Shown here one piece after another: positions 6,100 through 56,245 of a stretch of 64,000 nt of DNA. The DNA comes from Clostridia bacterium (GTDB lineage: Bacteria > Bacillota > Clostridia > TANB77 > CAG-465). Position numbers and translations under genes: made by a program. Below the pieces are notes generated by a model. The model was not told the DNA's origin and did no database searches. It saw nothing but the letters and a program-made list of their open reading frames with translations. Location of the stretch: NCBI GenBank assembly GCA_045651205.1, contig JAZRSA010000050.1, forward strand, positions 29,723-93,722, given 5' to 3'. Each line of letters begins with the position of its first letter. Position 1 is the first letter of the stretch.

Positions 6100-7827
6100 A
6101 TGGGTTATTCAAATTTGGAACACTTTAAAGAAACACTTAATGCTTCAGATTATTTTGTTGGCATAACCGAATCGTTAATAGATAAATTATTAGAATATGA
6201 ATATATTTCATCATTTAAATTATCTCATTATTTACGCAAACTAACAGATAATATTGCAGAATTAAGAATAGATACAAATAATCCTTATGAATACAAAACA
6301 GGATACTATGACGCAAACAAAAAAGAAATGTACATAAAAAGCACTAGAAATGTTTCTGCTACATATCTTCGTTTGTTATATGCGCTAACAACAACAGAAG
6401 TAGATAATAATGTATATGAATCAGGATATGCAACAACAAAACTATCTACAGAAAATTATAAACTATGTCATTATAATTTTGGTATAAACCGTGCTATAAT
6501 GTCTAATTTAGTATATAAACTTTGTAACTTATTACCTTCTTCTATACAAATATCAGAAATGCAACAAACAAGCACTCATAACTTTTTAGGCTTTAAAATA
6601 GAATCACAAAACGATATGTATTTCTTAGAAGGCAAAATTTTAAGTGAATTGTGTTATGTTTTAGATTTAGATCCAGAACTATTATATCGCGGACTATTTA
6701 CTAGACATCCAATGAAAGTTTTAAATAGAGCTTTTAGAAAGAAAAAATTCAAACGTTCTGACGATTTTCTAATTGTATTAGATGGCATTAGTAGAAAATA
6801 TTCTACATATAACAAACTTGTATTCTTATCTCAAAAACTAAACGAAAACTATGTAGAATACAAGAAAAATGTCTTAACAAGCGACGTTAATGATATAAAC
6901 AATGAGAAAGCTTTAATAGAACAAGAAATCGCAGATGTTTTAGCTAAATTCAAAAGGGATACTACCCCTAAAGAAATTGTTGAATCTGACGATGAAGCAA
7001 TTATTGAAGAAGATTTAGATGAAGTTCTAGACTATACTTCTAGCCTAGCTGAAACAATTCAAAAATTATATGATGATTTAAGAGAACAAATTATATATAT
7101 ACAAGATATATTAGCAGAACAACTTATAGAAAGTTCTAAAAATTTATCTTATACATTATATGCTAGCAAGCTAAAATGTTTTAACAATATATTAATTGTT
7201 CCTAATAAAAGGCTTTCAGATAAAATCGAAGAAATTATAACATTTAAGCTTATGCCAGAATCTGAAGTTACTGGTAGCAACCTAATAGATAAAATCAAAT
7301 ATGCTCTAATCGAACAAATACTTGCAGAAAAAGATTATTCGGATATCTCTAATACCTTCTCTTTCTACAATATAGATTCATTAGAAAACGCGGAAAACGG
7401 TTCTTGTTTAATTATATTAAATTATTCTAAACCGCCATCTAAAATATTAGAAGTTTCTGGTTTAGACGAATCAGGTCATAATTATACAATTACACCTATT
7501 CCTTTAGACAATTTAAGTCATATTATGAATACTGGTTATTCCACATTCTTTGTTGGTAACATTGAAAAACTATATACAGATTTAAAGAATAATTTTAAAA
7601 AGTTTTCTAATGTTCCATTAGACCAAATATATGTTTTTGAATATAACTCTAAAAAATATTTATTGTTACAAACAAACGGAATACCACATATAGTTGCTTT
7701 CTCTACACAAGAAGTACGCAACTTTGGCATTCAACCGTTATCTGAAAAATATAAAGTATTTGGCAAATCTGTTGTTAAGACTAAAAGCAAATCAACAACA
7801 ACTCTACCTACTTTATATAAAAAATAA
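6100..7827 (+). CDS. Hypothetical 575-aa soluble protein. No recognisable domain.
   Basis: Long ORF with RBS GGAGGA 6 nt upstream of the ATG. Host-like AT-rich codon usage. No TM segments, no Walker motif. Ends at a bidirectional terminator. Confidence 0.6.
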   Translation: MGYSNLEHFKETLNASDYFVGITESLIDKLLEYEYISSFKLSHYLRKLTDNIAELRIDTNNPYEYKTGYYDANKKEMYIKSTRNVSATYLRLLYALTTTEVDNNVYESGYATTKLSTENYKLCHYNFGINRAIMSNLVYKLCNLLPSSIQISEMQQTSTHNFLGFKIESQNDMYFLEGKILSELCYVLDLDPELLYRGLFTRHPMKVLNRAFRKKKFKRSDDFLIVLDGISRKYSTYNKLVFLSQKLNENYVEYKKNVLTSDVNDINNEKALIEQEIADVLAKFKRDTTPKEIVESDDEAIIEEDLDEVLDYTSSLAETIQKLYDDLREQIIYIQDILAEQLIESSKNLSYTLYASKLKCFNNILIVPNKRLSDKIEEIITFKLMPESEVTGSNLIDKIKYALIEQILAEKDYSDISNTFSFYNIDSLENAENGSCLIILNYSKPPSKILEVSGLDESGHNYTITPIPLDNLSHIMNTGYSTFFVGNIEKLYTDLKNNFKKFSNVPLDQIYVFEYNSKKYLLLQTNGIPHIVAFSTQEVRNFGIQPLSEKYKVFGKSVVKTKSKSTTTLPTLYKK

Positions 7828-21763: not shown

Positions 21764-23833
21764 TTATTCTTCTGTTCCATCTCCACCATTGTTTTCAGGC
21801 GCTGGAGTTGGAGTTGGTGTTGGCTCTGGTTCAGGCTTAGGCTCAGGTTTTGGTTCTGGCTTTGGCTCTGGTTCCGGTTCAGGATCTGGTGTCGGAGTTG
21901 GAGTCGGTGTTGGCTCTGGTTCCGGTTCAGGATCCGGTGTCGGAGTTGGAGTCGGTGTTGGCTCTGGTTCCGGTTCAGGATCTGGCGTCGGAGTCGGAGT
22001 TGGCGTTGGCTCTGGTTCCGGAGTTGGTGTTGGTTCCGGTGTTGTTCCCGGTGTTTCTGGTGTTGTTGGAGTTTCAGGAGTTGTTGTTTCTTCCTTCTTC
22101 TCTTCTTCATATACGCCTCTTGGAACAACTAGCTTATCGTTGTATTTAGATAAACTTATTGAACCACCTTCTAATAATTCACCGTCTAACACTTTATTTA
22201 TTAATACTGTTGCTTGCTTAATATTTCCAGCGTAAGGTATCATAACATATAATAATGTTTTTCCCATTGAATATGTTCTTTCTCTAGAACCTGCTCCGTT
22301 TAATGCTGTTGAAGATACTGTCCATTTTGCATTATCTGTTATTTGCATTCTTACTAGTTCAACCATTTTTTCTGTAGACATATTTGTTTGGAAACTTCCT
22401 TTTACTGAAGCTAGTATGTCATCAAACTTAGTAAGTATTGTTGTAGATGTTACTTTTTGAATTATTGCATCTATAACTGCTTGTTGATTTTTACCTCTAG
22501 TTGCATCTCCACCTGGTAATGAATATCTTTCTCTAGCAAATGCTAGTGTCTTTTTACCATTTAATTTATTTAATCCTTTTTTGATTTTGTATCCGCCTAT
22601 TTTTGTAGTAAATGCATATTCTGAGTCAACTTCTACTCCTCCTACAGCATCTACTATTTTTACAACCGAATTAAAGTTTACTCTTACATAATAGTTTATA
22701 TCTATTTTTAATAAATCTTCTAGTGTTTTTATAGATTTATCTACTCCATATATACCAGCATGTGTTAATTTGTCTCTATATCCACTTGTACCATTTAATT
22801 TTACATAGTAATCTCTAGGGATATTTACTAGTAATACGTGTTTTGTTTTAGGGTTTACAACCGCTAACATATTAACATCACTTCTAGATTTAGAAGGCAT
22901 TGTTTTAGAACGTGAATCTATACCACTTATATACACTATGAATGGTTTTTCTGTTACCGCAACATCCTTAACTACTTCTGGCATTTTATCCTCTAGGTTA
23001 AATTCATGTAAAGTTGTTATCTTTTCCCTAAAGTCTGGTATTTCCTCTTCTATAAGATCATAATATGCTTCTTCTACTAAAATAGCATCTACAGATTTGT
23101 CTATTAATTTATTTGCTAGCACATGTATATCATCCGTCTTTTCAGACATCATTACTATAGCTTCTTTTAGTTTAGCCATAGCTTCTTCTGTTTCACCCAT
23201 CTCGTTATCATAATACATTAATAGTTTATAAGATAAATCTTCTAATTTCTTGTATTCACCATCTTTAAGAACAACTAATGCATATGCTTTAGTTTCTACA
23301 ATTTCGCTATCTATTTCTTTTAATATATCTGTAGATTCACCTAAAATTGAATTTACATATATACATAAGGCTACTATCGCTGCTGCTATAACTGCAAATA
23401 TTATTTTTACTATGCTACTAAATTTCTTCCATAGTGTTAATGCTAACATAGCTACTAGCACTACTAAGCCGCCGCCAAAAGCATAATATAATATTTTCAT
23501 ATAGTTTGCTGGTATTAAATTAAGATCATTATTTAATTTAACACCCCTTACAAAAGTTATTATTAATATAACTGTCGCAACTAATGTTAGTATTCCTGTT
23601 ATTATTCTAATTGTTTTCTTGGCCTTTGTATCTTCGAAAGGCTTTTTCTCTTTTACTTTCTTTTCTTTAGGTTCTTTAACCTTTTTTTCTTTAACTTTTT
23701 TCTCTTTAATTGGAGATTCGTTAGTTTCTACATTATTTCTTTTTAAGAAAAGTTTTTTATTTTCTTCTCTTTGTAGTTTTTCTCTTCTTCTAATTTCCCT
23801 TTGTTCTTTTCTACTTTCCATTGTATTTTTCAC
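21764..23833 (-). CDS. LytR-CpsA-Psr (LCP) family cell-envelope phosphotransferase with Lys-rich N-terminus and ~100-aa PEPEPTPT repeat tail
   Basis: Core motifs [38 protein letters not shown] and ARERY. N-terminal TM anchor. C-terminal ([14 protein letters not shown])n repeats. Confidence 0.8.
21800..22095. repeat. In-frame coding tandem repeat (about 48-bp units, GGTGTCGGAGTTGGAGTCGGTGTTGGCTCTGGTTCCGGTTCAGGATC-like) encoding the PEPEPT linker of the LCP protein
   Basis: Repeats visible directly. They generate spurious ORFs in all frames (21596..22235 ORF-track entries). Confidence 0.85.
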
Positions 23834-23940: not shown

Positions 23941-24678
23941 TTATATTCTTTTAACACATTTTGTTTTCTTTTTCCCACAATATTGTGTACATAATTTATC
24001 TGTACATTTCGAACATTTAAGTGCTTCATTTGTCATTTCTGAAAAACGTTCAGGATATATCATAACGCATAATTCCCAAACAAGCCAAGCTAATACAGAC
24101 ATCACAACTAACGACCAACAATAAAATCCACCAACAAAAACAAGTGGCGAAAACATCATAAGATGATCCCAGTTAAATATTCTACATGTTGTACAACATT
24201 TGTTTTTCATAAGTAGTCTAAACGGACACCATACTAAAACGCATATCAAATCACACACATAAAAGAAAACAGATATAATAAATATTCCTATTTCATTTAT
24301 TACATTACAAAAATACAAAATACCAATTATTATAATCAACAAAATCCATATAATCATAACCTTATATGCAGATTTAGTAGTGTTTACTACATATTTCTTT
24401 AAATTATCATAATTAATTTTATCTCGTATTGGTTTGAAACGATTAGCAAATAATTTTTGTGAACCCAATGCTACTTTGTTTTTTATAGGTATAATTTGTA
24501 GTATTATATCCGCAATCCAAAGCCCCCATAACAAATGTAATATATGAAATTTATTAAAGAAATTCATTCCTATTAATACATCAAAGTTTTCTTTATTAAA
24601 ACTCATTGCTATACAGCCAATAAAAATTACTATACGTCCTATCAAACGTGTAAAATATCTTTTTCTTGTAATAGACAT
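23941..24678 (-). CDS. Hypothetical polytopic membrane protein with Cys-rich C-terminal tail
   Basis: 245 aa with multiple TM helices. C-terminal CCTTC ... C..C ... CSKCTDKLCTQYCGKKKTKC cluster. Confidence 0.4.
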   Translation of the reverse strand: MSITRKRYFTRLIGRIVIFIGCIAMSFNKENFDVLIGMNFFNKFHILHLLWGLWIADIILQIIPIKNKVALGSQKLFANRFKPIRDKINYDNLKKYVVNTTKSAYKVMIIWILLIIIIGILYFCNVINEIGIFIISVFFYVCDLICVLVWCPFRLLMKNKCCTTCRIFNWDHLMMFSPLVFVGGFYCWSLVVMSVLAWLVWELCVMIYPERFSEMTNEALKCSKCTDKLCTQYCGKKKTKCVKRI

Positions 24679-24811: not shown

Positions 24812-24918
24812 GACTACGTATATAAATATACACTAGTTAAATTAAATTGTCAATATTTTTTTCGTTTTTTATACAATTTATTTTACTAGCATTATACTAT
24901 TAAGTTAAATTAATAAAT

Positions 24919-24940
24919 AAGAGATGGTTTCCCATCTCTT
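24919..24940. terminator. Hairpin (aagagatgg tttc ccatctctt) downstream of the SDR gene
   Basis: Read directly. Modest T-tract. Confidence 0.5.
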
Positions 24941-24956
24941 ATATTATTTACAATAA

Positions 24957-25737: not shown

Positions 25738-27450
25738 TTAACCATCGATTCCAGGTCCGTCGAAAGTATCCATTTCTACTACCTCTGAAACTGTTTTTTC
25801 TCCTACAGTTGTATCTATTTCTTCTGGTGGATATACACCAGCAGCTAAAGTATCTTTCATGTCCACAGTTCCTGGAGTTACTGTACCACCTTCAGCTACA
25901 ACTTCTGGTGTAGATTCTTTTTTAGTACTTCTTTCGCTTTCTGAAGATAATGCTGCTATTATCATTGCATCTCTTGCAACGTCAGATAATCCTTCTGTTG
26001 CTTCTCTTCCAGCTCTTTCTACACTTGATCTTACTCCATCTTCTACTGAAGTATCACGTGATGAAGCTTCAGGTAAAGATAATGATCTTCCTAATCCTGA
26101 AAACCAAGATAATGGATTTCTGCTTCTTGTTCTCTTAACTTCAGAATATGTATCTAATGCTGTTCTAAAGCCTTTCATTGTTTCTAATTCAGCAATCGCT
26201 CTATCTCTTAAAGTTACTTCGTCAGCTGTTAATTCTTCACCACTAGCAACTTTAGCTTCCGCTGCAGCTACAACTTTTTCGAAAACAGATTGTCCTCTTG
26301 TCTTAGCTTCCTTATTTCCTAAGAATCCTTTTATTCCGCTCCAACTTCTTACTTCAGAACTTGCTACAATATTTTCGCCAGTTTCTGTTTTAGCATCTAT
26401 TCCATAAGTAGCGTTGATTGCTCTTAGAGCTTCTGGATATTTTCTAGTCATTTCACTTCCCATTGCAACAAGTATTACTTTTGCTTTATTTCTAAATAAT
26501 CCAGTAGAAATTCCAAATTTTTCATAACATGTTGGGTCAGCCATTATAACTTCTAATTTTTTCATATCTTCAACACCTAAACATCTTTGTTTAGCTGCTC
26601 TATATATCTCATCAAATTCTGCATAGCTCATATCTCTTGGATCTGTTGGCGCAGCTGGTGCTACTGTCGCAGTTCCACCTGGAGCTGTTGTCGCAGTTCC
26701 ACCTGGCACTGATGTTGCAGTTCCGCCTGGAACTGTTGTTGCAGTTCCGCCTGGCACTGATGTTGTAGTTCCGCCTGGAACTGTTGTTGTAGTTCCACCT
26801 GGAACTATTGTTTCATCTTCACCTGGAGTTTCTTTTTTATCATCTCCCGGAGTTTCTTTTTTATCATCTCCTGGAGTTTCTGTTACACCTCCACCTACTT
26901 CTTCTTTTGGTCCAAAATTCTTTTTAGCTCTTTCAATTCTTTTTTCTAATTTAGTTAATGAATCTATTTCTTCTGGCGTAAATACACCTTTATCTTTGAA
27001 TATATTCATTATTGGTATTAACTTTTTATTATTTTCTTTTATTTCTCTTTTTGCTGCATTTATTGCTCTTGTAGCAAGACGCATTTCTTTTTCAATACCT
27101 TTTATTTCAGCTTGGTATATTCTTATTTTATCTTTATCTCCTGCTTCGCCTTTAGCTTCTTCTTCAGCTATTACCGCTTGTAATTCTTCTATTCTAGCTT
27201 TAGATTTTTCTAAAAACTCATTGTTAGTTGCCATTTTTTCTTCTAAACCATGAATGGCATCCATTATATCTTGTTTTGCCTTTACACCAAGTTCAACAAT
27301 ACTTTCCTCAAGGCCAGAAATTGCTTTATCAAAACCAGCAACTATATTAGCTCTTTCATCATCTGACAAATCATCTCTTCCTTCTGCAGCTGCCTTATCT
27401 GCAACAAGCTTTTGATATTGTTCTTCTAATATTTCGTAATCTTTTCCCAC
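25738..27450 (-). CDS. Hypothetical 570-aa protein. N-terminal coiled-coil domain, (ETPGDDKK)3 and (VPGGTxTT)6 repeats, unknown C-terminal domain. Higher GC.
   Basis: GTG start with strong AGGAGG RBS. No signal peptide or TM. Internal in-frame repeats. G+C visibly above the flanks. Confidence 0.6.
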   Translation of the reverse strand: MGKDYEILEEQYQKLVADKAAAEGRDDLSDDERANIVAGFDKAISGLEESIVELGVKAKQDIMDAIHGLEEKMATNNEFLEKSKARIEELQAVIAEEEAKGEAGDKDKIRIYQAEIKGIEKEMRLATRAINAAKREIKENNKKLIPIMNIFKDKGVFTPEEIDSLTKLEKRIERAKKNFGPKEEVGGGVTETPGDDKKETPGDDKKETPGEDETIVPGGTTTTVPGGTTTSVPGGTATTVPGGTATSVPGGTATTAPGGTATVAPAAPTDPRDMSYAEFDEIYRAAKQRCLGVEDMKKLEVIMADPTCYEKFGISTGLFRNKAKVILVAMGSEMTRKYPEALRAINATYGIDAKTETGENIVASSEVRSWSGIKGFLGNKEAKTRGQSVFEKVVAAAEAKVASGEELTADEVTLRDRAIAELETMKGFRTALDTYSEVKRTRSRNPLSWFSGLGRSLSLPEASSRDTSVEDGVRSSVERAGREATEGLSDVARDAMIIAALSSESERSTKKESTPEVVAEGGTVTPGTVDMKDTLAAGVYPPEEIDTTVGEKTVSEVVEMDTFDGPGIDG

Positions 27451-27462
27451 AATTATTACCTC

Positions 27463-27588
27463 CTATTTTTTAAGTTCGTCAACTTTCTTTTGAAGTTCCG
27501 CAAGTTTTTCTAAATCTTCTGTTGCCTTTTTTAGTTTTTCTACATCTACATTTATTTCTTCTTCAGTGTAGAATTTCTTTTCTTCCAT
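27463..27588 (-). CDS. Small 41-aa coiled-coil peptide (MEEKKFYTEEEINVDVEKLKKATEDLEKLAELQKKVDELKK), translationally coupled to the 570-aa gene
   Basis: Not in the ORF track (<60 aa). GGAGGT RBS 8 nt upstream of its ATG. Its TAG stop overlaps the AGGAGG RBS of the downstream gene. Confidence 0.45.
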   Translation of the reverse strand: MEEKKFYTEEEINVDVEKLKKATEDLEKLAELQKKVDELKK

Positions 27589-27603
27589 AATATATACCTC
27601 CAC

Positions 27604-27617
27604 ATGCAAATTTGCAT
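27604..27617. promoter_or_regulatory. Perfect 14-bp palindrome ATGCAAATTTGCAT (candidate operator) just downstream of the -10 of the minus-strand promoter
   Basis: Read directly. Lies between the promoter (-10 ATACTA complement at 27632-27637) and the RBS of the small ORF. Confidence 0.5.
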
Positions 27618-27631
27618 ACTCTTATATCTCA

Positions 27632-27660
27632 ATACTAACATATATAAAAAAATATGTCAA
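27632..27660 (-). promoter_or_regulatory. Sigma-A-type promoter (TTGACA-17-TAGTAT on the minus strand) driving the 41-aa + 570-aa module
   Basis: Reverse complement of 27632-27660 reads TTGACATATTTTTTTATATATGTTAGTAT. Confidence 0.5.
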
Positions 27661-27721: not shown

Positions 27722-27750
27722 TTGACTATTTTTAAAATTTATTGTACAAT
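27722..27750 (+). promoter_or_regulatory. Sigma-A-type promoter (TTGACT-17-TACAAT) for the glmS ribozyme-glmS transcript
   Basis: Read directly. Lies ~55 nt upstream of the ribozyme core. Confidence 0.5.
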
Positions 27751-27799
27751 AGTCGTTGAAAATATTTTTAAACTCAAAGGAGTGAGTATAAAAAGTTTA

Positions 27800-27955
27800 A
27801 GAATATTAGCGCATGGTTTTGCTATTTTAGCAAATTGACGAGGATGATAGTTATCGACACATCAGCGGGTGCTATCACGGTTTAATGGGATCGACATATA
27901 GGTACAAAAGGTAAAATTCAGGAATTACTACAAAAAGCCTATAATCCAAAAGTAC
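27800..27955 (+). ncRNA. glmS ribozyme: glmS ribozyme (GlcN6P-responsive self-cleaving riboswitch) in the glmS 5' leader
   Basis: Ribozyme core elements AGCGC ... TTGACGAGGATG ... TTATCGA ... CAGCGGGTGC ... CGG and downstream P3/P4-like region match the Bacillus glmS ribozyme in order and spacing. Immediately upstream of glmS. Confidence 0.75.
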
Positions 27956-27985: not shown

Positions 27986-29782
27986 ATGTGCGGAATTATA
28001 GGATACGCTTCAAAGAATTTAGATTCTTGTAGCGTTGCATTGTCATGCTTAAAAAACTTAGAATACAGAGGTTATGATTCCTCTGGTGTCGCTACTAGCG
28101 AACAGGGAAAAATCAATATGTATAAAGCGCAAGGAAAAATCGCTAATCTAGAAGATAAAATCAAATACAATGATATATTTGCTTCTACTGCTATTGCGCA
28201 TACAAGATGGGCTACACACGGAGAGCCAAGTGAGACTAACGCTCACCCACACAAAGTTGGGCACGTTACATTAGTGCATAACGGAATCATCGAAAACTAC
28301 TCAGATATTAAACAAGATTTATTATCTAAAGGAATGAATTTTGTTTCTGAAACAGATTCTGAAGTTGCATGTGGATACATTAATTATATGTATGAAAAAA
28401 CTGGAGATAAAATGGCAAGTATAAAAGCCGCTTGTGATGAATTTAGAGGTTCTTATGCTCTACCAATTATCTTTGACGATGAGCCAAATACAATTTATTC
28501 TGTTAGAAAAAACAGTCCATTAATTGTAGGTCTTAGCGATAACGGAAACTTTGTATCTTCTGACGTTTCTGCAATACTTAATTATACAAATAAGTATATG
28601 CTATTAGATAACGATGAATATGTTAAGGTTACAAACGATTCAGTTGAGATATTTGACTCTAATCTTAATAAAATAGATAAAGCAGTAGATACAGCTACTT
28701 GGAGTGCTGTGGAATACCAAAAGAATGGTTATGACCACTTCATGTTAAAAGAAATCTATGAACAACCTAAAGTTGTTAAAAACATATTAGGCAAGTTCTA
28801 TGATGATATAGACTTCACAAAATACGATAATATACACATCGTTGCTTGTGGTAGTGCTATGCATGCTGGTATGGTTGCTAAATACCTTTTAGAAAACAAC
28901 GCTAAAATTAGAACTACAGTAGAAATTGCATCTGAATACAGATACAAAGAAAATCTAATTACACCTTCTACTCTAGTTATAATAATATCTCAATCTGGTG
29001 AAACTGCAGATACATTAGCTGCACTACGTTTAGCAAAAGAACAAGGTGCATATGTTTTAGCTATTGTTAATGTTGTTGGTTCTTCTATCGCTCGTGAAGC
29101 AGATAAAACAATATACACTTATGCAGGTCCAGAAATAGCTGTTGCTACAACTAAAGGATATTCTTCACAAGTTGCTACATTAACAAACGTAGCTCTTACA
29201 ATAATGAAACAAAAAGGATTATTACAAGATTCTGTAATGGATGCATTCTATGAAGATGTAGAAAAAATAGAAACACTTGCAGAAGATTTAATTAATTCTA
29301 GAGATATGTATAAAGCTATAGCAAACAAGTTATATACTCACGAAAATGTATTATACATTGGTCGTGGCATAGATAGTGCAAGTTGTATGGAAGGTTCTCT
29401 AAAACTTAAAGAAATCTCTTACATACACTCAGAAGCGTATGCAGCAGGCGAATTAAAACACGGTACAATATCACTTGTAGATCAAGGAACACCTGTTATA
29501 ACTATCGCTACAGTAGACAATCTATATGAAAAAACAATAAGCAATCTAAAAGAAACAAAAGCTCGTGGGGCTTATACCCTACTAATAACTACAGAAAACC
29601 AAAATGTAGAAAATATAAAAGACTCATTAGATGATGTAATTATTCTACCTAAACTTTCTGAATTTTTACAATCACTACTTGTAGTTATTGTTCTTCAATT
29701 AATTGCTTACGAAACAGCTATACTAAGAGGCGCAGATATAGACAAACCTAAAAATCTTGCTAAATCTGTTACTGTTGAATAA
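27986..29782 (+). CDS. glmS: Glutamine--fructose-6-phosphate aminotransferase (isomerising)
   Basis: N-terminal MCGIIGY (Cys2 nucleophile), two SIS domains, C-terminal ...KPKNLAKSVTVE. Confidence 0.95.
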   Translation: MCGIIGYASKNLDSCSVALSCLKNLEYRGYDSSGVATSEQGKINMYKAQGKIANLEDKIKYNDIFASTAIAHTRWATHGEPSETNAHPHKVGHVTLVHNGIIENYSDIKQDLLSKGMNFVSETDSEVACGYINYMYEKTGDKMASIKAACDEFRGSYALPIIFDDEPNTIYSVRKNSPLIVGLSDNGNFVSSDVSAILNYTNKYMLLDNDEYVKVTNDSVEIFDSNLNKIDKAVDTATWSAVEYQKNGYDHFMLKEIYEQPKVVKNILGKFYDDIDFTKYDNIHIVACGSAMHAGMVAKYLLENNAKIRTTVEIASEYRYKENLITPSTLVIIISQSGETADTLAALRLAKEQGAYVLAIVNVVGSSIAREADKTIYTYAGPEIAVATTKGYSSQVATLTNVALTIMKQKGLLQDSVMDAFYEDVEKIETLAEDLINSRDMYKAIANKLYTHENVLYIGRGIDSASCMEGSLKLKEISYIHSEAYAAGELKHGTISLVDQGTPVITIATVDNLYEKTISNLKETKARGAYTLLITTENQNVENIKDSLDDVIILPKLSEFLQSLLVVIVLQLIAYETAILRGADIDKPKNLAKSVTVE

Positions 29783-29812
29783 TCCTTTTAGTATAAAAGC
29801 TAGAATATAGTA

Positions 29813-29840
29813 AAACCGAGTAAGATATCTTACTCGGTTT
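29813..29840. terminator. Bidirectional rho-independent terminator (aaaccgagtaaga tat cttactcggttt plus T-run)
   Basis: Read directly. Confidence 0.8.
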
Positions 29841-29873
29841 TATTTTTATATTTATTAATTATATTGACTAATT

Positions 29874-30887
29874 TCATTTTATTAAAGTAAAGTCTGTTGT
29901 TGTTCCAACTTTGGCAAGTATACTTGCTTTTAAACAAATAACCGGTTGTACTTCTTTACTAGCAGTATATCCTGCGTATGCTAATTCGCTTGATGAAAAA
30001 CTCATTACTCCGCTTAAAGAAGAATATACAGGCGAAGCCATCCATACATAGTTGTTCTTTGATACATATGGTTTTTTACCATTTATTCCACCGATGCTTG
30101 CTCCACCATTTATTTTATACCCCAATGGTCCCAATGTTATTTCTATTTTAGGTTGATATCCTTTTGCATTCCATCCTGCCACTAGCAATTCTATAGTTGG
30201 TCCACCTATTGCTCCCACTACATTTTCGCCATAAGTCTCTGCATTTGCGAAATTAGAATAGTCTTTTATTAGTTTAACTACCGCCTTACTACTGTTAGCA
30301 TCATTATTACTTATTCTATCTGCTAAAATGAATTTTTCAAACTCTCCAACTCTAAATATATCATATAGTTCTTTTTCTTTTTCTGTTAAATCAGTTACTG
30401 AATAATTTGTAATCAAATCTGTATTGCCAACATTTTCTGCTGAAATTAAATATACATATTCGCTATTATGATAATATATTTCCCATTTGTCATACTTTGT
30501 TCCATCGACTGTAACAACATAATCTACTGTATCACCATAATTATCTGGTGTTATCAAAGAACCTAATGGTTGAATAGAAGTTTTATTTATAACATCTACT
30601 CCGTTTTCAGTTACTATTATATTCCATTTATCTTCTGTAACTCCTTGATTTGCAAGTTCTTGTTTTACAATTGTTGTAATATTATTTTTCTTTGCCTCAT
30701 CTAAATATGCATCCATCCATATTATTGTAGCTAATTCTTGCACCTGCTTTTCATTGTTTAAATCAACCCCTTGATTTGCTTTATTTATTATATTTGTGTT
30801 ACTTAATGTAATTACTACACTTGCTGCTAATATTATCATTACTATTATTGTTATAACTAATACTATTAACGATATTCCTCTTTTCAT
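29874..30887 (-). CDS. Pilin-like N-terminal domain protein, paralogue B (337 aa)
   Basis: N-terminus MKRGISLIVLVITIIVMIILAASVVI parallels the type IV prepilin signal (G-F-T-L-I-E-L...ILAA) but has Val at +5. The mature region is homologous to 37138..37728. Confidence 0.55.
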   Translation of the reverse strand: MKRGISLIVLVITIIVMIILAASVVITLSNTNIINKANQGVDLNNEKQVQELATIIWMDAYLDEAKKNNITTIVKQELANQGVTEDKWNIIVTENGVDVINKTSIQPLGSLITPDNYGDTVDYVVTVDGTKYDKWEIYYHNSEYVYLISAENVGNTDLITNYSVTDLTEKEKELYDIFRVGEFEKFILADRISNNDANSSKAVVKLIKDYSNFANAETYGENVVGAIGGPTIELLVAGWNAKGYQPKIEITLGPLGYKINGGASIGGINGKKPYVSKNNYVWMASPVYSSLSGVMSFSSSELAYAGYTASKEVQPVICLKASILAKVGTTTDFTLIK

Positions 30888-51730: not shown

Positions 51731-54700
51731 TTATTTTTCTGCTTCTCCATGCCATGGATTGTTTGGATTTGGATCAGTTGGATCCCAATTTCTATTTGCT
51801 ATATTATCTGATATTTTTGGCGCTGTAGGTTTTCCTAAAGGACCTGGAGTAGAACTATTATAAAATTCTACTGTAACACCTTTTTTAATGTTATCATAAA
51901 TCCATTTAGCATCTTCTACTGTAAGTCTTATACACCCCGCTGACGCTTTGGTACCAAGTTTATCATATTCCTCATACTTAAGAGTATCCGGAGATTTTTC
52001 TTTATATGGTACTGAATGAAATAATATATCTCCTGTTATTTGAGTACAATATTGTCCATATACATTGCCTACAAGTTTTAACCAATTCCATCTACTTTTT
52101 ATTGTATACTTTCCTTTTTTAGGTGTTGCAGTACCCGTAGAACAAACCATTGCTTTTATCGCTTTTAAATTAGCTGTATCTGGTCCTTTATATATAGTTA
52201 CTGTGTTAGCTTGTACGTTGATTTTTATATAATATATATCTTCTTTTATACTAAATTTTATTTCTTTTTTACCGGTATAATTTCCAATACCCGTTATTGT
52301 TATTAAGGCTGTTCCAACATTTATATTGTTACTATATGTTATGCTATAATCTACGCCTTCTACTAATTCATTACTTCCGTTTTTAATAACTAAATTAGGT
52401 TTTACTTCTTCACCTGTATACGATTGAGTATATATCACACTATATGTTAGATTAGAAACATTTCCTTTTGTTATATTATATGTTAATACTTTTTCACCTT
52501 GGAAGTTTCCTATACCTGTAACTTTAACAGTTGCTGTTCCTGGTTCAATGTTATTTTCATATGTTACAGTATAATCTGTACCAAGTTTTAATGTTTTCTT
52601 GTTATATACTAGTTTTAAACTTTGTTTTGTTTCAGAACCAGTATATGTTTTATTTACAAGTCCAGTTATTGTTGCTGAAGCTATACTTCTTGGATTTATT
52701 GTATATGTTAATATCTTAGTTCCAGTATAATTTCCTTTACCTTTTATAGTAATTGTACCAGTACCTGGATATACATTATTTTTATATGACACTGTATAGT
52801 GTGTACCATTTTTTAATGTTGTTCCATTATGTACCACCTTGACACTTGGATTTCTTGCTCCGCCTGTGTAGGCCATAGATGTTCCGTATGTTATATCTAA
52901 ATCATTTATATCTCTATCTACAATTTTGAAAGTTAATTTTTTACTTGATGTAAAATTACCTAATCCCGTTATTGTTACTGCTGCCGTTCCTGGATTTGTA
53001 TTATTTTTATATGTTAATTTATAATCCACTCCATTTTTTAATGTTATACCATTATATGTTAGTTCTAAGTTTTGTTTAATAGCTTTTCTTGTATACTCTT
53101 TATTTGCCAATCCTTCTACTATAGCCGAAACGATACTTCTTCTTACTATACTAAACTTAATCGTCTTTGTTCCAGTAAAGTTTCCAATTCCAGTGATTGT
53201 TATTGTAGCTGTTCCTGGTTTTGTGTTTTTACTATATGAAATAGTATAGTCCTTATCTTTTATTAAAGTGTAACTTCCATATGTTGCTTTTATGCTTGGC
53301 GTTATTGCTTTACCTGTATACGCATAACTTTTAATTTTATTGAACGTTACTGAACTTATACTTCTTCTATTTATTTTGTATGTTAATATTTTTTCACCCG
53401 TAAAGTTTCCTTTACCAGTTATTTTTACTGTAGCTGTTCCAATTTCAACATTATTTTCATATGTTAAAATATAATCTTTACCTTCTTTTAATGTCTTTTT
53501 ATTATATGTTAATGTTAAACTTTGCTTTCTTACACCACCTGTATATGCTTTGTCTGCAAAGCCTTTTATTGTTACTGAATTTATACTTCTTGGATTTATT
53601 GTATATGTTAAAACTTTAGTTCCGTTATAATTGCCTTTACCTTTTATTGTAATTGTACCTGTTCCAGGATATACATTATTTTTATACGATACTGTATAAT
53701 GTGTTCCGTTTTTTAATGTTGTCCCATTATGTACTACTTTAACACTTGGATTTCTTGCTCCTCCTGTATATGCCATAGAAGTTCCAGCTGTTATCTCTAA
53801 ATCGTTTATATTTCTATCTTTAATCTTAAATTCTAATTTTGTACTAGATCTAAAATTACCTTTACCTGTTACAGTTATTGTAGCTGTACCTGGTTTTGTA
53901 TTGTTTTTATATGACAATGTATAATCTACACCCTCTACAAGTTTTATTCCTTTGTACATAATTGTTAAATTTTGCTTTATACTCTTTGCGGTATAATATT
54001 TAACTTCTAATCCTGTAATTTCTGTAGATTTTATACTTCTTGCCACTATATTAAATTTAATTGTTTTTGTTCCAGAATAATCTCCTATTCCAGTTATTAT
54101 TATTTTACCAGTTCCAACTTTAATATTATTTTCATAAGATACTGTGTAGTCTACTCCTTCTACTAGAGTTTTTCCACCATATGTCGCTGTTATACTTGGT
54201 TTTATCTCAAAGCCTGTATATGCATAATCTGCAACTTTGTTATATGTAAAAGTAGTCACACTTCTTTTTACTATATTAAAATTAATTTCTTTAGTTCCAA
54301 TATAACTTCCTTTACCTGTTATAACTAAGGTAGCTACTCCTAATTCTTTGTTGTTTTTATATGTTATTGTATAGTCTACGCCATTTTTTAATGTAGTCTT
54401 TCCGTATTTTACTATTATTCCCTGCGTTATATTAGAACCAGTATATACTTTATCTACAACACCTGTAACAGTTGCATTGTTTATATCATAACCTATATTA
54501 TATGTTAATTGGGCTGTTCCTATGTATCCACCAGCAGTTTCGCTTCCTGTTCCCGTTATAGATATTGTATTAGTTCCCAGTTTGTTAGATGTAACTTGTG
54601 ACCAGTAAAAATCTTTACCCACTTCTAGTCTAATACCATTATGATAAATCCTAATATTATTTTCAGTTAAAGTGTTACCATATACAACATCTGATATTTT

Positions 54701-56245
54701 TTCAAAAGTTAAATTGTTTATATTTGTTGCTTTTATCTTATATGGTATATCTCTAACTCCAGAATAATTACCATACATTATAATAGAAACTGTTCCTGCT
54801 GCTTTTGATTCTATAACCGATGCATAATAGTTCTCGTTTTCTACTAATACTTTACCATTATGTTTTATAACTAGTTTAGGACGAATTCCGCCTTTTATAT
54901 AGTTATATTCTGTTTCTATTCCTTCTATTTCCAGTTCTGATATATCTACTGGTTCAATTTCAAAATGTTCTTCTAATGTACCAATGCAACTATTTATTCC
55001 TTTTACTGTAACATATACTGTTCCCGCATTTATATTGTCACTATATGTTAACGTATAATCTATTCCTTCTGTTAAAAGAATCTTTTCATAATCTGATTCA
55101 CCTTGATACGTATATACTTTTACTTCCTTTTTATGTTCTTCACCAGTATATTTAACAGAAGTCAAATCCACTTCCATTTTTCTTATATATACCGGATCAA
55201 TATAAAATTTAAACGCCGTTGTTCCTTCGTATTTACCAATACCTGTGTAAATTATTTCAGCAAGTCCTGCATATACATTGTTTTTATATGATACTGTATA
55301 GTCTCTACCTTCTTTTAGTGTTATATTTGTTCTAGTATATATTGGTACTTTGTATTCATGCGATTTAGTGTCATATGACACACTAGCTGGTCCTTCCCCT
55401 ATTTTAAATATACAATACTCCATATTGCCTTTTCCTAGTTCAAATGTTATTGTTCTTGTTCCAGCATAATTTCCCTTACCGGTTATCTCTATTGTCTTTG
55501 TACCAAACGATGAATTATCTATGGCACTTCCAATATAATCTACACCTTCATATATAGCAGTTCCATCTTCAAGTAATAAATAACCTTGCGTAGGGCCATC
55601 TGTAAATTCTTGCTTAGCTGCTATTTTCAAATTTTCTACATTCGAGCCTTTTATTTTAAACTCAAATACTTTAGTACCAGTGTAATTCCCCATACCATTT
55701 GCATATATATACCCATTTCCAGCATATATATTTACACCATAAGACAATTTATAATCCTTATCTTTAACAAGAACTGTATCTCCATTTTTAACAATTACTT
55801 CCGGTAGTTTTGGGTTGCCATCATATATATACTCTTCATCTTTATTTGATAATTCAACTGTAAACAATCTGCTTGCTTGACCTTGTATAATTTCAAAAGA
55901 TACATTTCTTGAACCTACATACTCTCCTATACCCACAACTCTAATTACGCCTTGTCCTACTTCAGTATTTGTTACATCTTCAATTATATAATCTTTGCCT
56001 AAAGTTAATATATTTCCATCATAACGAATACTTAATATTGGCTTAATTGCTTCTCCTGTATATTCATAACTATCTATCTTGTCTATTATTGTGTTATTAA
56101 TATCTATTAAATTTTCATATATCTCTTGCTTTGTTACTAAATATCCATATTTATTATATATACCTGCATTTACAGTATTTATACATACTACAAATGCCAT
56201 AATTAATAACAAAAATACTACCAACACTTTAGTTCTCTTTTGCAT
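51731..56245 (-). CDS. Giant surface L,D-transpeptidase: signal peptide, ~17 tandem ~75-aa Ig-like repeats, C-terminal YkuD catalytic domain
   Basis: Repeats of pattern YTG..IKP...V.Y.GKTL..G.DYT.SY.NN...GTA.V.I.G.GNY.GTK...F.I. C-terminal HSVPY...GTKASAGCIRL matches the L,D-transpeptidase His/Cys catalytic motif. Confidence 0.8.
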   Translation of the reverse strand: MQKRTKVLVVFLLLIMAFVVCINTVNAGIYNKYGYLVTKQEIYENLIDINNTIIDKIDSYEYTGEAIKPILSIRYDGNILTLGKDYIIEDVTNTEVGQGVIRVVGIGEYVGSRNVSFEIIQGQASRLFTVELSNKDEEYIYDGNPKLPEVIVKNGDTVLVKDKDYKLSYGVNIYAGNGYIYANGMGNYTGTKVFEFKIKGSNVENLKIAAKQEFTDGPTQGYLLLEDGTAIYEGVDYIGSAIDNSSFGTKTIEITGKGNYAGTRTITFELGKGNMEYCIFKIGEGPASVSYDTKSHEYKVPIYTRTNITLKEGRDYTVSYKNNVYAGLAEIIYTGIGKYEGTTAFKFYIDPVYIRKMEVDLTSVKYTGEEHKKEVKVYTYQGESDYEKILLTEGIDYTLTYSDNINAGTVYVTVKGINSCIGTLEEHFEIEPVDISELEIEGIETEYNYIKGGIRPKLVIKHNGKVLVENENYYASVIESKAAGTVSIIMYGNYSGVRDIPYKIKATNINNLTFEKISDVVYGNTLTENNIRIYHNGIRLEVGKDFYWSQVTSNKLGTNTISITGTGSETAGGYIGTAQLTYNIGYDINNATVTGVVDKVYTGSNITQGIIVKYGKTTLKNGVDYTITYKNNKELGVATLVITGKGSYIGTKEINFNIVKRSVTTFTYNKVADYAYTGFEIKPSITATYGGKTLVEGVDYTVSYENNIKVGTGKIIITGIGDYSGTKTIKFNIVARSIKSTEITGLEVKYYTAKSIKQNLTIMYKGIKLVEGVDYTLSYKNNTKPGTATITVTGKGNFRSSTKLEFKIKDRNINDLEITAGTSMAYTGGARNPSVKVVHNGTTLKNGTHYTVSYKNNVYPGTGTITIKGKGNYNGTKVLTYTINPRSINSVTIKGFADKAYTGGVRKQSLTLTYNKKTLKEGKDYILTYENNVEIGTATVKITGKGNFTGEKILTYKINRRSISSVTFNKIKSYAYTGKAITPSIKATYGSYTLIKDKDYTISYSKNTKPGTATITITGIGNFTGTKTIKFSIVRRSIVSAIVEGLANKEYTRKAIKQNLELTYNGITLKNGVDYKLTYKNNTNPGTAAVTITGLGNFTSSKKLTFKIVDRDINDLDITYGTSMAYTGGARNPSVKVVHNGTTLKNGTHYTVSYKNNVYPGTGTITIKGKGNYTGTKILTYTINPRSIASATITGLVNKTYTGSETKQSLKLVYNKKTLKLGTDYTVTYENNIEPGTATVKVTGIGNFQGEKVLTYNITKGNVSNLTYSVIYTQSYTGEEVKPNLVIKNGSNELVEGVDYSITYSNNINVGTALITITGIGNYTGKKEIKFSIKEDIYYIKINVQANTVTIYKGPDTANLKAIKAMVCSTGTATPKKGKYTIKSRWNWLKLVGNVYGQYCTQITGDILFHSVPYKEKSPDTLKYEEYDKLGTKASAGCIRLTVEDAKWIYDNIKKGVTVEFYNSSTPGPLGKPTAPKISDNIANRNWDPTDPNPNNPWHGEAEK

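Follow-up and report, generated by a model that had tools for sequence, protein, structure and literature searches.

A predicted three-gene operon for a 41-residue peptide, an orphan coiled-coil protein and a YmfI-type reductase in uncultured gut Clostridia

A 64,000-nt stretch of contig JAZRSA010000050.1 from a Clostridia bacterium, called the window throughout this paper, carries on its minus strand what is predicted to be a three-gene operon, in which a 41-amino-acid (aa) peptide, a 570-aa protein (here named X) and a short-chain dehydrogenase/reductase (SDR) of the YmfI type are encoded behind one strong promoter and ahead of one terminator. All coordinates are window positions; related loci and the proteins of relatives that were compared are cited as L0xx and P00xx, respectively. 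The best explanation of the locus, which we put forward tentatively and at rather less than even odds, is a strongly expressed operon whose peptide and X form a cytoplasmic scaffold that acts with the YmfI-type reductase, its expression being tuned by a hairpin in the mRNA leader.

According to this explanation, the peptide would be made in step with X and would pack on the N-terminal coiled coil of X. X itself would be a non-enzymatic cytoplasmic scaffold or tether, in which the coiled coil drives assembly, two disordered, length-variable spacers hold the parts of the protein apart, the C-terminal domain binds a ligand or partner through a conserved Y..GITTG..NK.K patch, and the conserved acidic tail serves as a docking peptide; X would share a pathway with the reductase. 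The palindrome of the leader would act in the mRNA: folded into a stem of 5-6 bp with the loop AAUU, it would lie 1-2 nt upstream of the Shine-Dalgarno sequence (SD) and would set initiation at the small open reading frame (ORF) and/or leader stability, perhaps as a protein-binding site, so that expression of X follows by coupling.

The operon, the peptide and the leader element

The features of the operon are collected in Table 1. Its promoter is, by sequence, a near-consensus sigma-A promoter with a predicted transcription start near 27625. The spacer ends in TGT, so that TG at 27640-27639 forms an extended -10, and a consensus scan that counted this TG gave a score of 10/12. The promoter is 99-100% identical across five close orthologous loci; TTGACA and a TG-extended -10 are also carried by the remote loci L011, L012, L014 and L016, and a sigma-A promoter is retained in 9/9 subfamilies, with or without the small ORF. 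An earlier note on this DNA, made from the sequence, had described this TTGACA-17-TAGTAT promoter, and all the sequence features that it listed exist where it placed them. The two-gene module that it proposed has to be extended to three genes: the SDR gene follows X after 43 nt, no terminator was found between the two, and the sole terminator (24942-24917) lies after the SDR gene. Beyond it, a tRNA-Met gene has its own promoter.

Table 1. Features of the predicted operon, in order of transcription
Feature	Position	Strand	Remarks
Sigma-A-type promoter	27632..27660	-	TTGACA 27660-27655, 17-nt spacer, TAGTAT 27637-27632
14-nt perfect palindrome ATGCAAATTTGCAT	27604..27617	-	2 nt separate it from the small-ORF SD
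GGAGG, SD of the small ORF	27597..27601	-	8 nt before ATG
41-aa ORF	27463..27588	-	between promoter and X
AGGAGG, SD of X	27459..27464	-	overlaps the TAG stop of the small ORF
X, 570-aa ORF	25738..27450	-	large protein, GTG start
X N-terminal helical/coiled-coil domain, aa 1-184	26899..27450	-	two allele types
X linker 1, aa 185-267	26650..26898	-	ETPGDDKK and VPGGTxTT repeats, probably disordered
X C-terminal all-alpha domain, aa 268 to ~455, and conserved SW..LP segment	26010..26649	-	
X linker 2 (aa 481-529) and conserved acidic tail (aa 530-570)	25738..26009	-	linker variable
FabG-like SDR, 245 aa	24957..25694	-	third operon gene, starts 43 nt after X
Intrinsic terminator	24917..24942	-	11-bp stem then T-run, ends the operon

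Comparison of the sequences indicates that the small ORF is a real gene under purifying selection. Among five of the six close loci it differs by 3-11 synonymous vs 0-2 nonsynonymous codons, the counts being about even against L006; it has been called independently by gene finders in other assemblies; and an ORF of 41-44 aa recurs upstream of X homologues that are 24-37% identical to the X of the window (L011, L012, L014 and L016). The product, MEEKKFYTEEEINVDVEKLKKATEDLEKLAELQKKVDELKK, is predicted to form an acidic amphipathic helix with a heptad pattern, a net charge of about -3.5 and no Pro, Gly or Trp, and M1, K4, Y7, E11, E17, L26 and L32 are invariant in the family alignment. It gave no match in Pfam, NCBIfam, PADLOC or PHROGs. 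In 5/5 subfamilies the SD of X adjoins or overlaps the small-ORF stop, which lies 4-12 nt from the X start, and translational coupling is therefore conserved in all subfamilies that bear the ORF. Thus, the helical peptide with its own ribosome-binding site, as well as the coupling through an AGGAGG laid over the TAG, both recognized in the earlier note, can be upheld. The peptide is probably a partner of X; its variants follow the type of the X N-domain, an association that is weak. Fusion of the peptide onto X in the lineages that have no separate ORF was considered and rejected, as the N-termini of X align from residue 1.

It was also observed that the small ORF and X are in the same frame at 27448-27465 (-), with the stop and 3-4 sense codons between them. 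This shared frame is found in 4/5 subfamilies (the window, L011, L012 and L014; not L016) and is probably a by-product of SD spacing, although readthrough of the stop codon would fuse the peptide and X.

The perfect palindrome behind the promoter, which would occupy about +9..+22 if transcription starts near 27625, is confirmed at 27617-27604. Its existence is not remarkable, since perfect palindromes of at least 14 bp number 14 in the window against 8.5 in shuffled sequences; its motif is unique in the window even when two mismatches are allowed, and it is notable for its position and conservation. We regard the palindrome, with somewhat more confidence than doubt, as an element that works at the level of the mRNA in the control of translation or stability, possibly as a protein-binding site. 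It is present in 5/5 subfamilies that have the small ORF and in 0/4 that do not, and a constant 1-2 nt separates it from the SD. The element reads AUGCA-AAUU-UGCAU in the window, GUGCA-AAUU-UGCAU in L011 and L014, GUGCA-UAUU-UGCAC in L012 and GCGCAU-AAUU-GUGCGU in L016, so that the outer pair of the hairpin is A-U, G·U or G-C; L016 shows a compensatory double change from U-A to C-G and an extra U·G pair. These pairs were tabulated by hand, because MAFFT lost the loop-anchored register for L016. The minimum-energy folds of all five variants give the same hairpin and leave the SD unpaired. The co-occurrence with the small ORF, the tracking of the SD and the G·U and compensatory changes suggest an RNA stem-loop in preference to an operator, and are suggestive, not decisive.

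The earlier note had taken the palindrome for an operator. On this reading a dimeric transcription factor would bind TGCAAA-TTTGCA just downstream of the -10 and repress the operon. A perfect 14-bp palindrome between -10 and SD is what such a site would look like, and its 12-bp core is the same in 4/5 subfamilies even where the rest of the untranslated region (UTR) differs, so it is the sequence of the element, not pairing alone, that is conserved; the energetic weakness of the hairpin points the same way. Still, the operator is clearly the less probable of the two and is regarded as doubtful: the distance of the element to the -10 varies between 14 and 18 nt while that to the SD is constant, and the element is lost together with the small ORF while the promoter stays. 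In L016, moreover, the arm spacing of the DNA goes from 4 to 6 bp and 12/16 positions are symmetric, whereas the RNA keeps all six pairs. The four asymmetric positions of the element are all G/T on the sense strand, never A/C; G·U is tolerated, and A·C never occurs. In 242 kb (the window and related loci), neither a second TGCA-N4-TGCA site nor an adjacent regulator gene was found, and the motif did not recur in metagenomes, where a scan for hairpin, SD and ATGGA returned 8 loci with unrelated ORFs and unrelated G+C content that were read as chance. A CsrA-type site was rejected on reading the sequence, as the loop contains no GGA, and so was a terminator or attenuator, as there is no U-tract. 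The leader gave no Rfam family at gathering or permissive thresholds.

Stem-loops in the 5' UTR beside a strong SD stabilize or tune mRNAs of Gram-positive bacteria, as in leaders of the aprE/ermC type and those of S-layer genes. The leader described here resembles them in its short predicted hairpin within about 37 nt, its strong promoter and the strong, free GGAGG directly 3' of the hairpin. It differs in that stem and loop are conserved beyond the needs of pairing, which hints at a specific binder.

Protein X: family, architecture and divergence

X is an orphan family whose C-terminal domain has a confident and, as a model, novel-looking fold. Fourteen close relatives, all of 556-628 aa, were found among 5.8 billion clustered proteins; they come from metagenome-assembled genomes of uncultured "Clostridia bacterium" from human gut and sheep rectum. 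When a profile built from the C-terminal region was run against 1.84 billion representatives, it recovered 45 proteins (24 at E<=1e-10) of 450-620 aa with one common layout. The relatives of X number about 60 among billions of proteins. No match to X at E<=1 beyond noise was obtained in Pfam or NCBIfam; PADLOC, PHROGs, Pfam and NCBIfam gave nothing consistent for X or for 33-42 family members, and the family members carry no Pfam domain and no informative name. A degenerate scan of DNA for the GITTG..NK.K motif returned 0 loci. Sequence and profile searches of the PDB with X yielded designed helical repeats for the N-domain and a uS13-like stretch of 23 residues (E=0.04), and nothing else. The latter, at X aa 292-314 (26508-26576, -), is a weak profile match to the segment LTxEExxxhxxIMxxPxxY of eukaryotic/archaeal uS13; the likeness is probably convergent, and the structure search did not recover uS13.

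The C-domain was modelled with AlphaFold2 from a 33-sequence alignment built from the 1.84-billion-protein profile search. The model is all-alpha with nine to ten helices (pLDDT 89.3, pTM 0.80); a 10-sequence alignment had given a pLDDT of 54, which is unusable. Foldseek found no neighbour of this model, the best E values being 0.55 in the PDB and 0.30 in BFVD, with TM <=0.36. The C-terminal region, in which the earlier note had recognized no motif, thus stays without a known family, and the structure prediction suggested there yields a well-modelled domain with no PDB or BFVD neighbour. X is filed as a new family because no match was found in the libraries searched; relative to these, the novelty concerns the family and, provisionally, the fold, and a new mechanism is not claimed.

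The N-terminal coiled coil named in the earlier note is borne out as a helical domain of 184 residues. Across the family this coiled coil varies in length and has a K.(S/T)(E/D)EYK.GDE turn motif, followed by an acidic low-complexity linker. Both repeat types of linker 1 had been noted before and are present, but their copy numbers need correction: ETPGDDKK occurs as two perfect copies and one degenerate copy instead of three, and VPGGT(T/A)T(T/S) as five copies and one degenerate copy instead of six. The C-domain of the family (~190 aa) follows the pattern DP..Y.K.GI(T/S)TG..FNK(S/A)K..LKA, then W.G.K, SW and LP, its motif in X being Y..GI(S/T)TG..(F/R)NK(A/S)K, and the tail of X has the conserved pattern ..GVYPPEEID..FDGPGIDG.

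By sequence criteria X would be cytoplasmic. The protein has a net charge of about -27, and no hydrophobic segment occurs in X or in 59 family members, the maximum 19-residue Kyte-Doolittle mean of X being 0.95; the lack of a signal peptide, pointed out in the earlier note, is in line with this. A cytoplasmic, acidic coiled-coil protein with variable disordered linkers and a conserved terminal peptide recalls the layout of DivIVA/GpsB/EzrA and of ZipA- and FtsZ-like proteins, and in several relatives the X family lies beside mreBCD-pbp2. This likeness to morphogenetic scaffolds or tethers is architectural only: X has no sequence or profile similarity to them, has no membrane-targeting element and evolves far faster.

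X is the place in the locus where divergence is concentrated (Table 2). Its flanking genes are 94-97% identical between relatives. The N-domain occurs as allele types with ~90% or 66-72% aa identity to the window, and the C-domain falls into two allele classes with ~41% aa identity to each other. With two N types and two C types, all four combinations were seen (P0001, P0002, P0013 and the P0003 group), which points to recombination at the domain boundary. In addition, at least five types of linker repeat exist among otherwise near-identical alleles, both unit and copy number being hypervariable. Neutral drift in place cannot account for this pattern, which indicates that old allele classes were exchanged as cassettes, that diversifying selection acted, or both. 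Positive selection is not proven, since dN/dS stays below 1 and dS is near saturation.

Table 2. DNA identity of the window to five close loci, and Nei-Gojobori estimates of dN and dS by region
Region	DNA identity	dN	dS	dN/dS
SDR	94-95%	0.005-0.007	0.26-0.32	about 0.02
glmS	93-97%	about 0.02	0.24-0.29	about 0.07
Promoter and UTR	99-100% (95% for the portion present in L006)			
X N-domain	88-89% (three loci), 76-77% (two loci)	0.05-0.23	0.42-0.82	0.09-0.33
X linkers	no alignment in most loci; 73% over parts in L006 and L007			
X C-domain	82% (one locus); ~65-70% across a fraction (others)			
X C-domain, between allele classes		0.50-0.55	~0.75	0.66-0.72
X C-domain, within class		0.156	0.517	0.30

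Two observations on neighbouring genes touch this divergence. The gene at 23941-24678 (-), between the tRNA-Met and LCP genes, encodes a polytopic membrane protein of 245 aa whose C-terminus is rich in Cys and which matches no family. This protein is found only in the window and in L006 (3039-3704), the two loci with the 'C-A' allele of the C-domain; in the 'C-B' loci the SDR gene is followed directly by the LCP gene, without a gene for this membrane protein. The link may reflect one recombination tract or a functional pairing, and is based on two loci vs four or five. Furthermore, a G+C peak of 0.50 at 21764-22200 (-) corresponds to the TPEP/PEPEP repeat tail of a 689-aa LCP (CpsA-like) transferase; in blastn this tail self-aligns out of register in every relative, and it is therefore a second hypervariable repeat region.

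Such divergence is also the principal argument for the main rival of the scaffold explanation, in which X is exposed: exported without a classical signal or placed on the spore surface, it would be an antigenically variable structural protein, with the peptide as chaperone or secretion partner and the Pro/Gly/Thr repeats as wall-spanning or glycosylated spacers. A divergence hotspot within a backbone of 94-97% identity, two recombining allele classes and linkers resembling variable-number tandem repeats would suit such a protein, as would the strong promoter and SD, and conserved ends around a variable centre recall, by a general-knowledge analogy, flagellin or S-layer loci. The organism sporulates, as judged from SpoIIR in the window, and the neighbourhood is rich in cell-envelope genes. 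An exposed X is nevertheless considered unlikely. It has no signal peptide, transmembrane segment, anchor motif with hydrophobic tail, SLH/CWB2 or flagellin domain; the promoter is of the sigma-A type, not of a sporulation sigma or sigma-D; the gene is co-transcribed with cytoplasmic housekeeping enzymes (the YmfI-type SDR and often pyrH); and no secretion-system genes were found in the window or in related loci.

A special form of export was contemplated in the earlier note, namely that X is an LXG-type polymorphic toxin of a type VII secretion system (T7SSb), with the 41-aa peptide as a Lap- or WXG-like helper. The resemblance to LXG toxins and their Lap helpers lies in a helical N-domain (~185 aa in X; ~185-200 aa in the comparison), in a small helical protein encoded directly upstream and translationally coupled, and in a recombination breakpoint between a conserved N-domain and a variable C-domain. 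The differences are more numerous, and the toxin reading is not supported; it is already largely refuted and we hold it to be very improbable. No LXG domain was detected in X (Pfam and NCBIfam, E<=1) or in 42 family members, and there was no match to LXG, WXG100, DUF3130 or DUF3958 at E<1. The peptide, with 41-44 aa against about 100 aa for the known helpers, is too short for a helical hairpin; it is predicted to be one helix, lacks Trp and Gly, and matches neither the WXG100 nor the Lap family. LXG toxins carry many unrelated toxin domains, while X is never seen with a different kind of C-domain: the same architecture and a homologous C-domain recur in all 14 close and all 45 remote relatives, without diversity of toxin domains. 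The downstream gene is a 98%-conserved housekeeping SDR and not a co-varying immunity gene, and X is single-copy in core synteny. Neither the 64-kb window nor ~180 kb of related loci contained a T7SSb gene, essC and esxA included. A 1504-aa ORF was considered as EssC and rejected, being a YkuD L,D-transpeptidase protein.

The YmfI-type reductase and the weighing of the scaffold explanation

The adjacency of X and the SDR is the only stable functional lead for X. The SDR gene lies directly downstream of X in 9/9 subfamilies, with gaps of 13-62 nt and differing outer neighbours: upstream of X are found glmS, a sortase/cps cluster, a GGDEF protein, pfkA, pbp2 or spoIIR, and after the SDR gene often pyrH or, in L009 and L015, a gene for a YbaK-type editing domain. 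The SDR of the window scores 261.6 bits (cutoff 238) with NCBIfam NF047420, the model for the elongation factor P (EF-P) 5-aminopentanone reductase YmfI, and the relatives' SDRs that were scanned (L009, L012 and L015) score 248-267 bits, all above this cutoff. All FabG equivalogs stayed below cutoff for these four proteins; the FabG subfamily model NF009466 also passes for the SDR, and the best raw score is that of FabG. In Bacillus subtilis, ymfI stands in the context ymfF-ymfH-ymfI-ymfJ. The likeness to B. subtilis YmfI is thus one of profile scores, and the difference is that the context of ymfI there has nothing like X or the peptide; activity of the present SDR on EF-P is a prediction only.

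The modification of EF-P in Firmicutes has been attributed to GsaB, YnbB and YmfI, and PPE has been reported as an EF-P-dependent (stalling) motif (2026 review, PMC13602936). A (Y/F/I)PP(E/S/K) motif is seen in the tail of X at aa 546-556 (25783-25815, -), e.g., in GVYPPEEID, and likewise in the tails of P0016, P0017, P0023 and P0027, just upstream of the YmfI-type gene; it is not family-wide. It can be envisaged that X and the peptide take part, with the YmfI-type reductase, in EF-P modification or in polyproline translation, where X would be an adaptor that presents EF-P, or an EF-P-dependent sensor through its C-terminal PP motif. This is the most testable of the novel readings, and a rather improbable one. 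The constant adjacency, the four of four scanned SDRs above the YmfI cutoff, the YbaK-type tRNA-editing gene in two loci and the PP motif near the C-terminus of X in several subfamilies speak in its favour, together with a Firmicute pathway that is described only as GsaB, YnbB and YmfI (PMC13602936). The same observations have another side: the PP motif is not universal in the X family, and equivalog assignment of SDRs is error-prone, as the results with the FabG models illustrate. X has no similarity to any EF-P-related protein, and a partner that evolves 25-75 times faster than its neighbours would be odd for a highly conserved translation factor. The genes efp, gsaB and ynbB were not seen in the 64-kb window.

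Several points weigh against the explanation preferred here, that of a peptide-X scaffold acting with the reductase under a leader hairpin. No homology ties X to a function, and the scaffold is read from architecture alone. The dN of X is 25-75 times that of the flanking genes, with two allele classes and hypervariable linkers, and divergence of this kind is commoner in surface, antigenic or conflict proteins than in housekeeping scaffolds. The small ORF is absent from four subfamilies (L009, L013, L015 and L017), so the peptide is accessory to X, neither universal nor obligatory. The X-SDR adjacency could be synteny inherited within one clade, since MreB is 70-79% identical across it. The hairpin is weak (5-6 bp, -4 to -7 kcal/mol, z-scores of -0.75 to -1.5) and starts ~8 nt away from the predicted 5' end of the transcript, a greater distance than in classic stabilizers at the 5' terminus. 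Finally, the GCA/UGC core of the stem is invariant and four distinct variants only are available, which leaves room for a sequence-specific DNA-binding protein.

A more far-reaching proposal, which we consider unlikely, is that the peptide and X form an unrecognized system of one lineage of gut Clostridia: a micropeptide-capped scaffold with a new alpha fold, cassette exchange under diversifying selection, a leader hairpin that may be autoregulatory, and a tie to YmfI. If real, it would be a new player in the modification of a translation factor, or in host-phage or host-immune conflict through a cytoplasmic or non-classically exported protein. Provided that the inferences drawn in this paper hold, the locus would offer a compact, experimentally tractable case of a conserved bacterial micropeptide with an obligate large partner, of a domain whose structure is predicted with confidence and for which structural relatives are not known, and of a gene whose divergence is 25-75 times that of its neighbours and in which domain-sized cassettes are swapped in a species-level backbone, a behaviour that normally marks proteins in molecular conflict. 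The constant pairing of X with a YmfI-type gene would then be a testable entry point to the EF-P 5-aminopentanol pathway of Firmicutes, whose definition is still incomplete. If these inferences fail, X would be one more orphan family of uncultured gut bacteria.

Origin of the locus and neighbouring features

The locus is a core chromosomal, vertically inherited and not a mobile one in uncultured low-GC gut Clostridia. The order mreC-mreD-pbp2, a small ORF, glmS (divergent), the 41-aa ORF, X, SDR, LCP transferase, secG and rnr is kept in all close loci. The earlier note had stressed that G+C is higher than in the flanks, and this is correct in so far as the X gene, at 0.364, ranks second in G+C among 48 genes (gene mean 0.304); a foreign or higher-GC module does not follow, as its G+C at third codon positions (GC3) is low (0.117 vs a mean of 0.171) and synteny is conserved. 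The codon analysis suggested there places the excess in the first and second codon positions and in the Pro/Gly/Thr linker (0.49), and the raised G+C is therefore a matter of amino-acid composition, not of foreign DNA. Searched by tblastn, phage and plasmid collections contained no match to X, and PADLOC and PHROGs were likewise negative. A foreign island was rejected on the GC3, the conserved synteny and the absence of phage and plasmid matches.

The other genes of the window form a housekeeping and cell-wall set, including PriA, Def, Fmt, PBP1, a U32 peptidase, RNase R, MreBCD, RadC, MscL, LigA, SerRS, a Mur ligase, Ddl and SpoIIR. The highly conserved sequence between the divergent genes is accounted for by a glmS ribozyme (RF00234, 67 bits) at 27797-27953 (+), upstream of glmS (27986-29782), and does not belong to the X promoter; a promoter-like site for glmS, TTGACT-17-TACAAT, lies at 27722-27750. 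The YkuD domain of the 1504-aa ORF mentioned above (51731-56245, -) is C-terminal and the only recognizable one, the first ~1300 residues being unannotated. A 575-aa ORF at 6100-7827 (+), with no Pfam family at E<=1e-4, adjoins a PIN-domain gene. Between pbp2 and glmS, a 337-aa ORF (29874-30887, -) with no match in Pfam, NCBIfam or PHROGs represents a strain-specific replacement, because close relatives hold a 100-aa ORF in that slot. Where glmS and the 337-aa gene converge, a perfect 32-bp palindrome, TAAAACCGAGTAAGATATCTTACTCGGTTTTA (29811-29842), probably terminates transcription from both sides.

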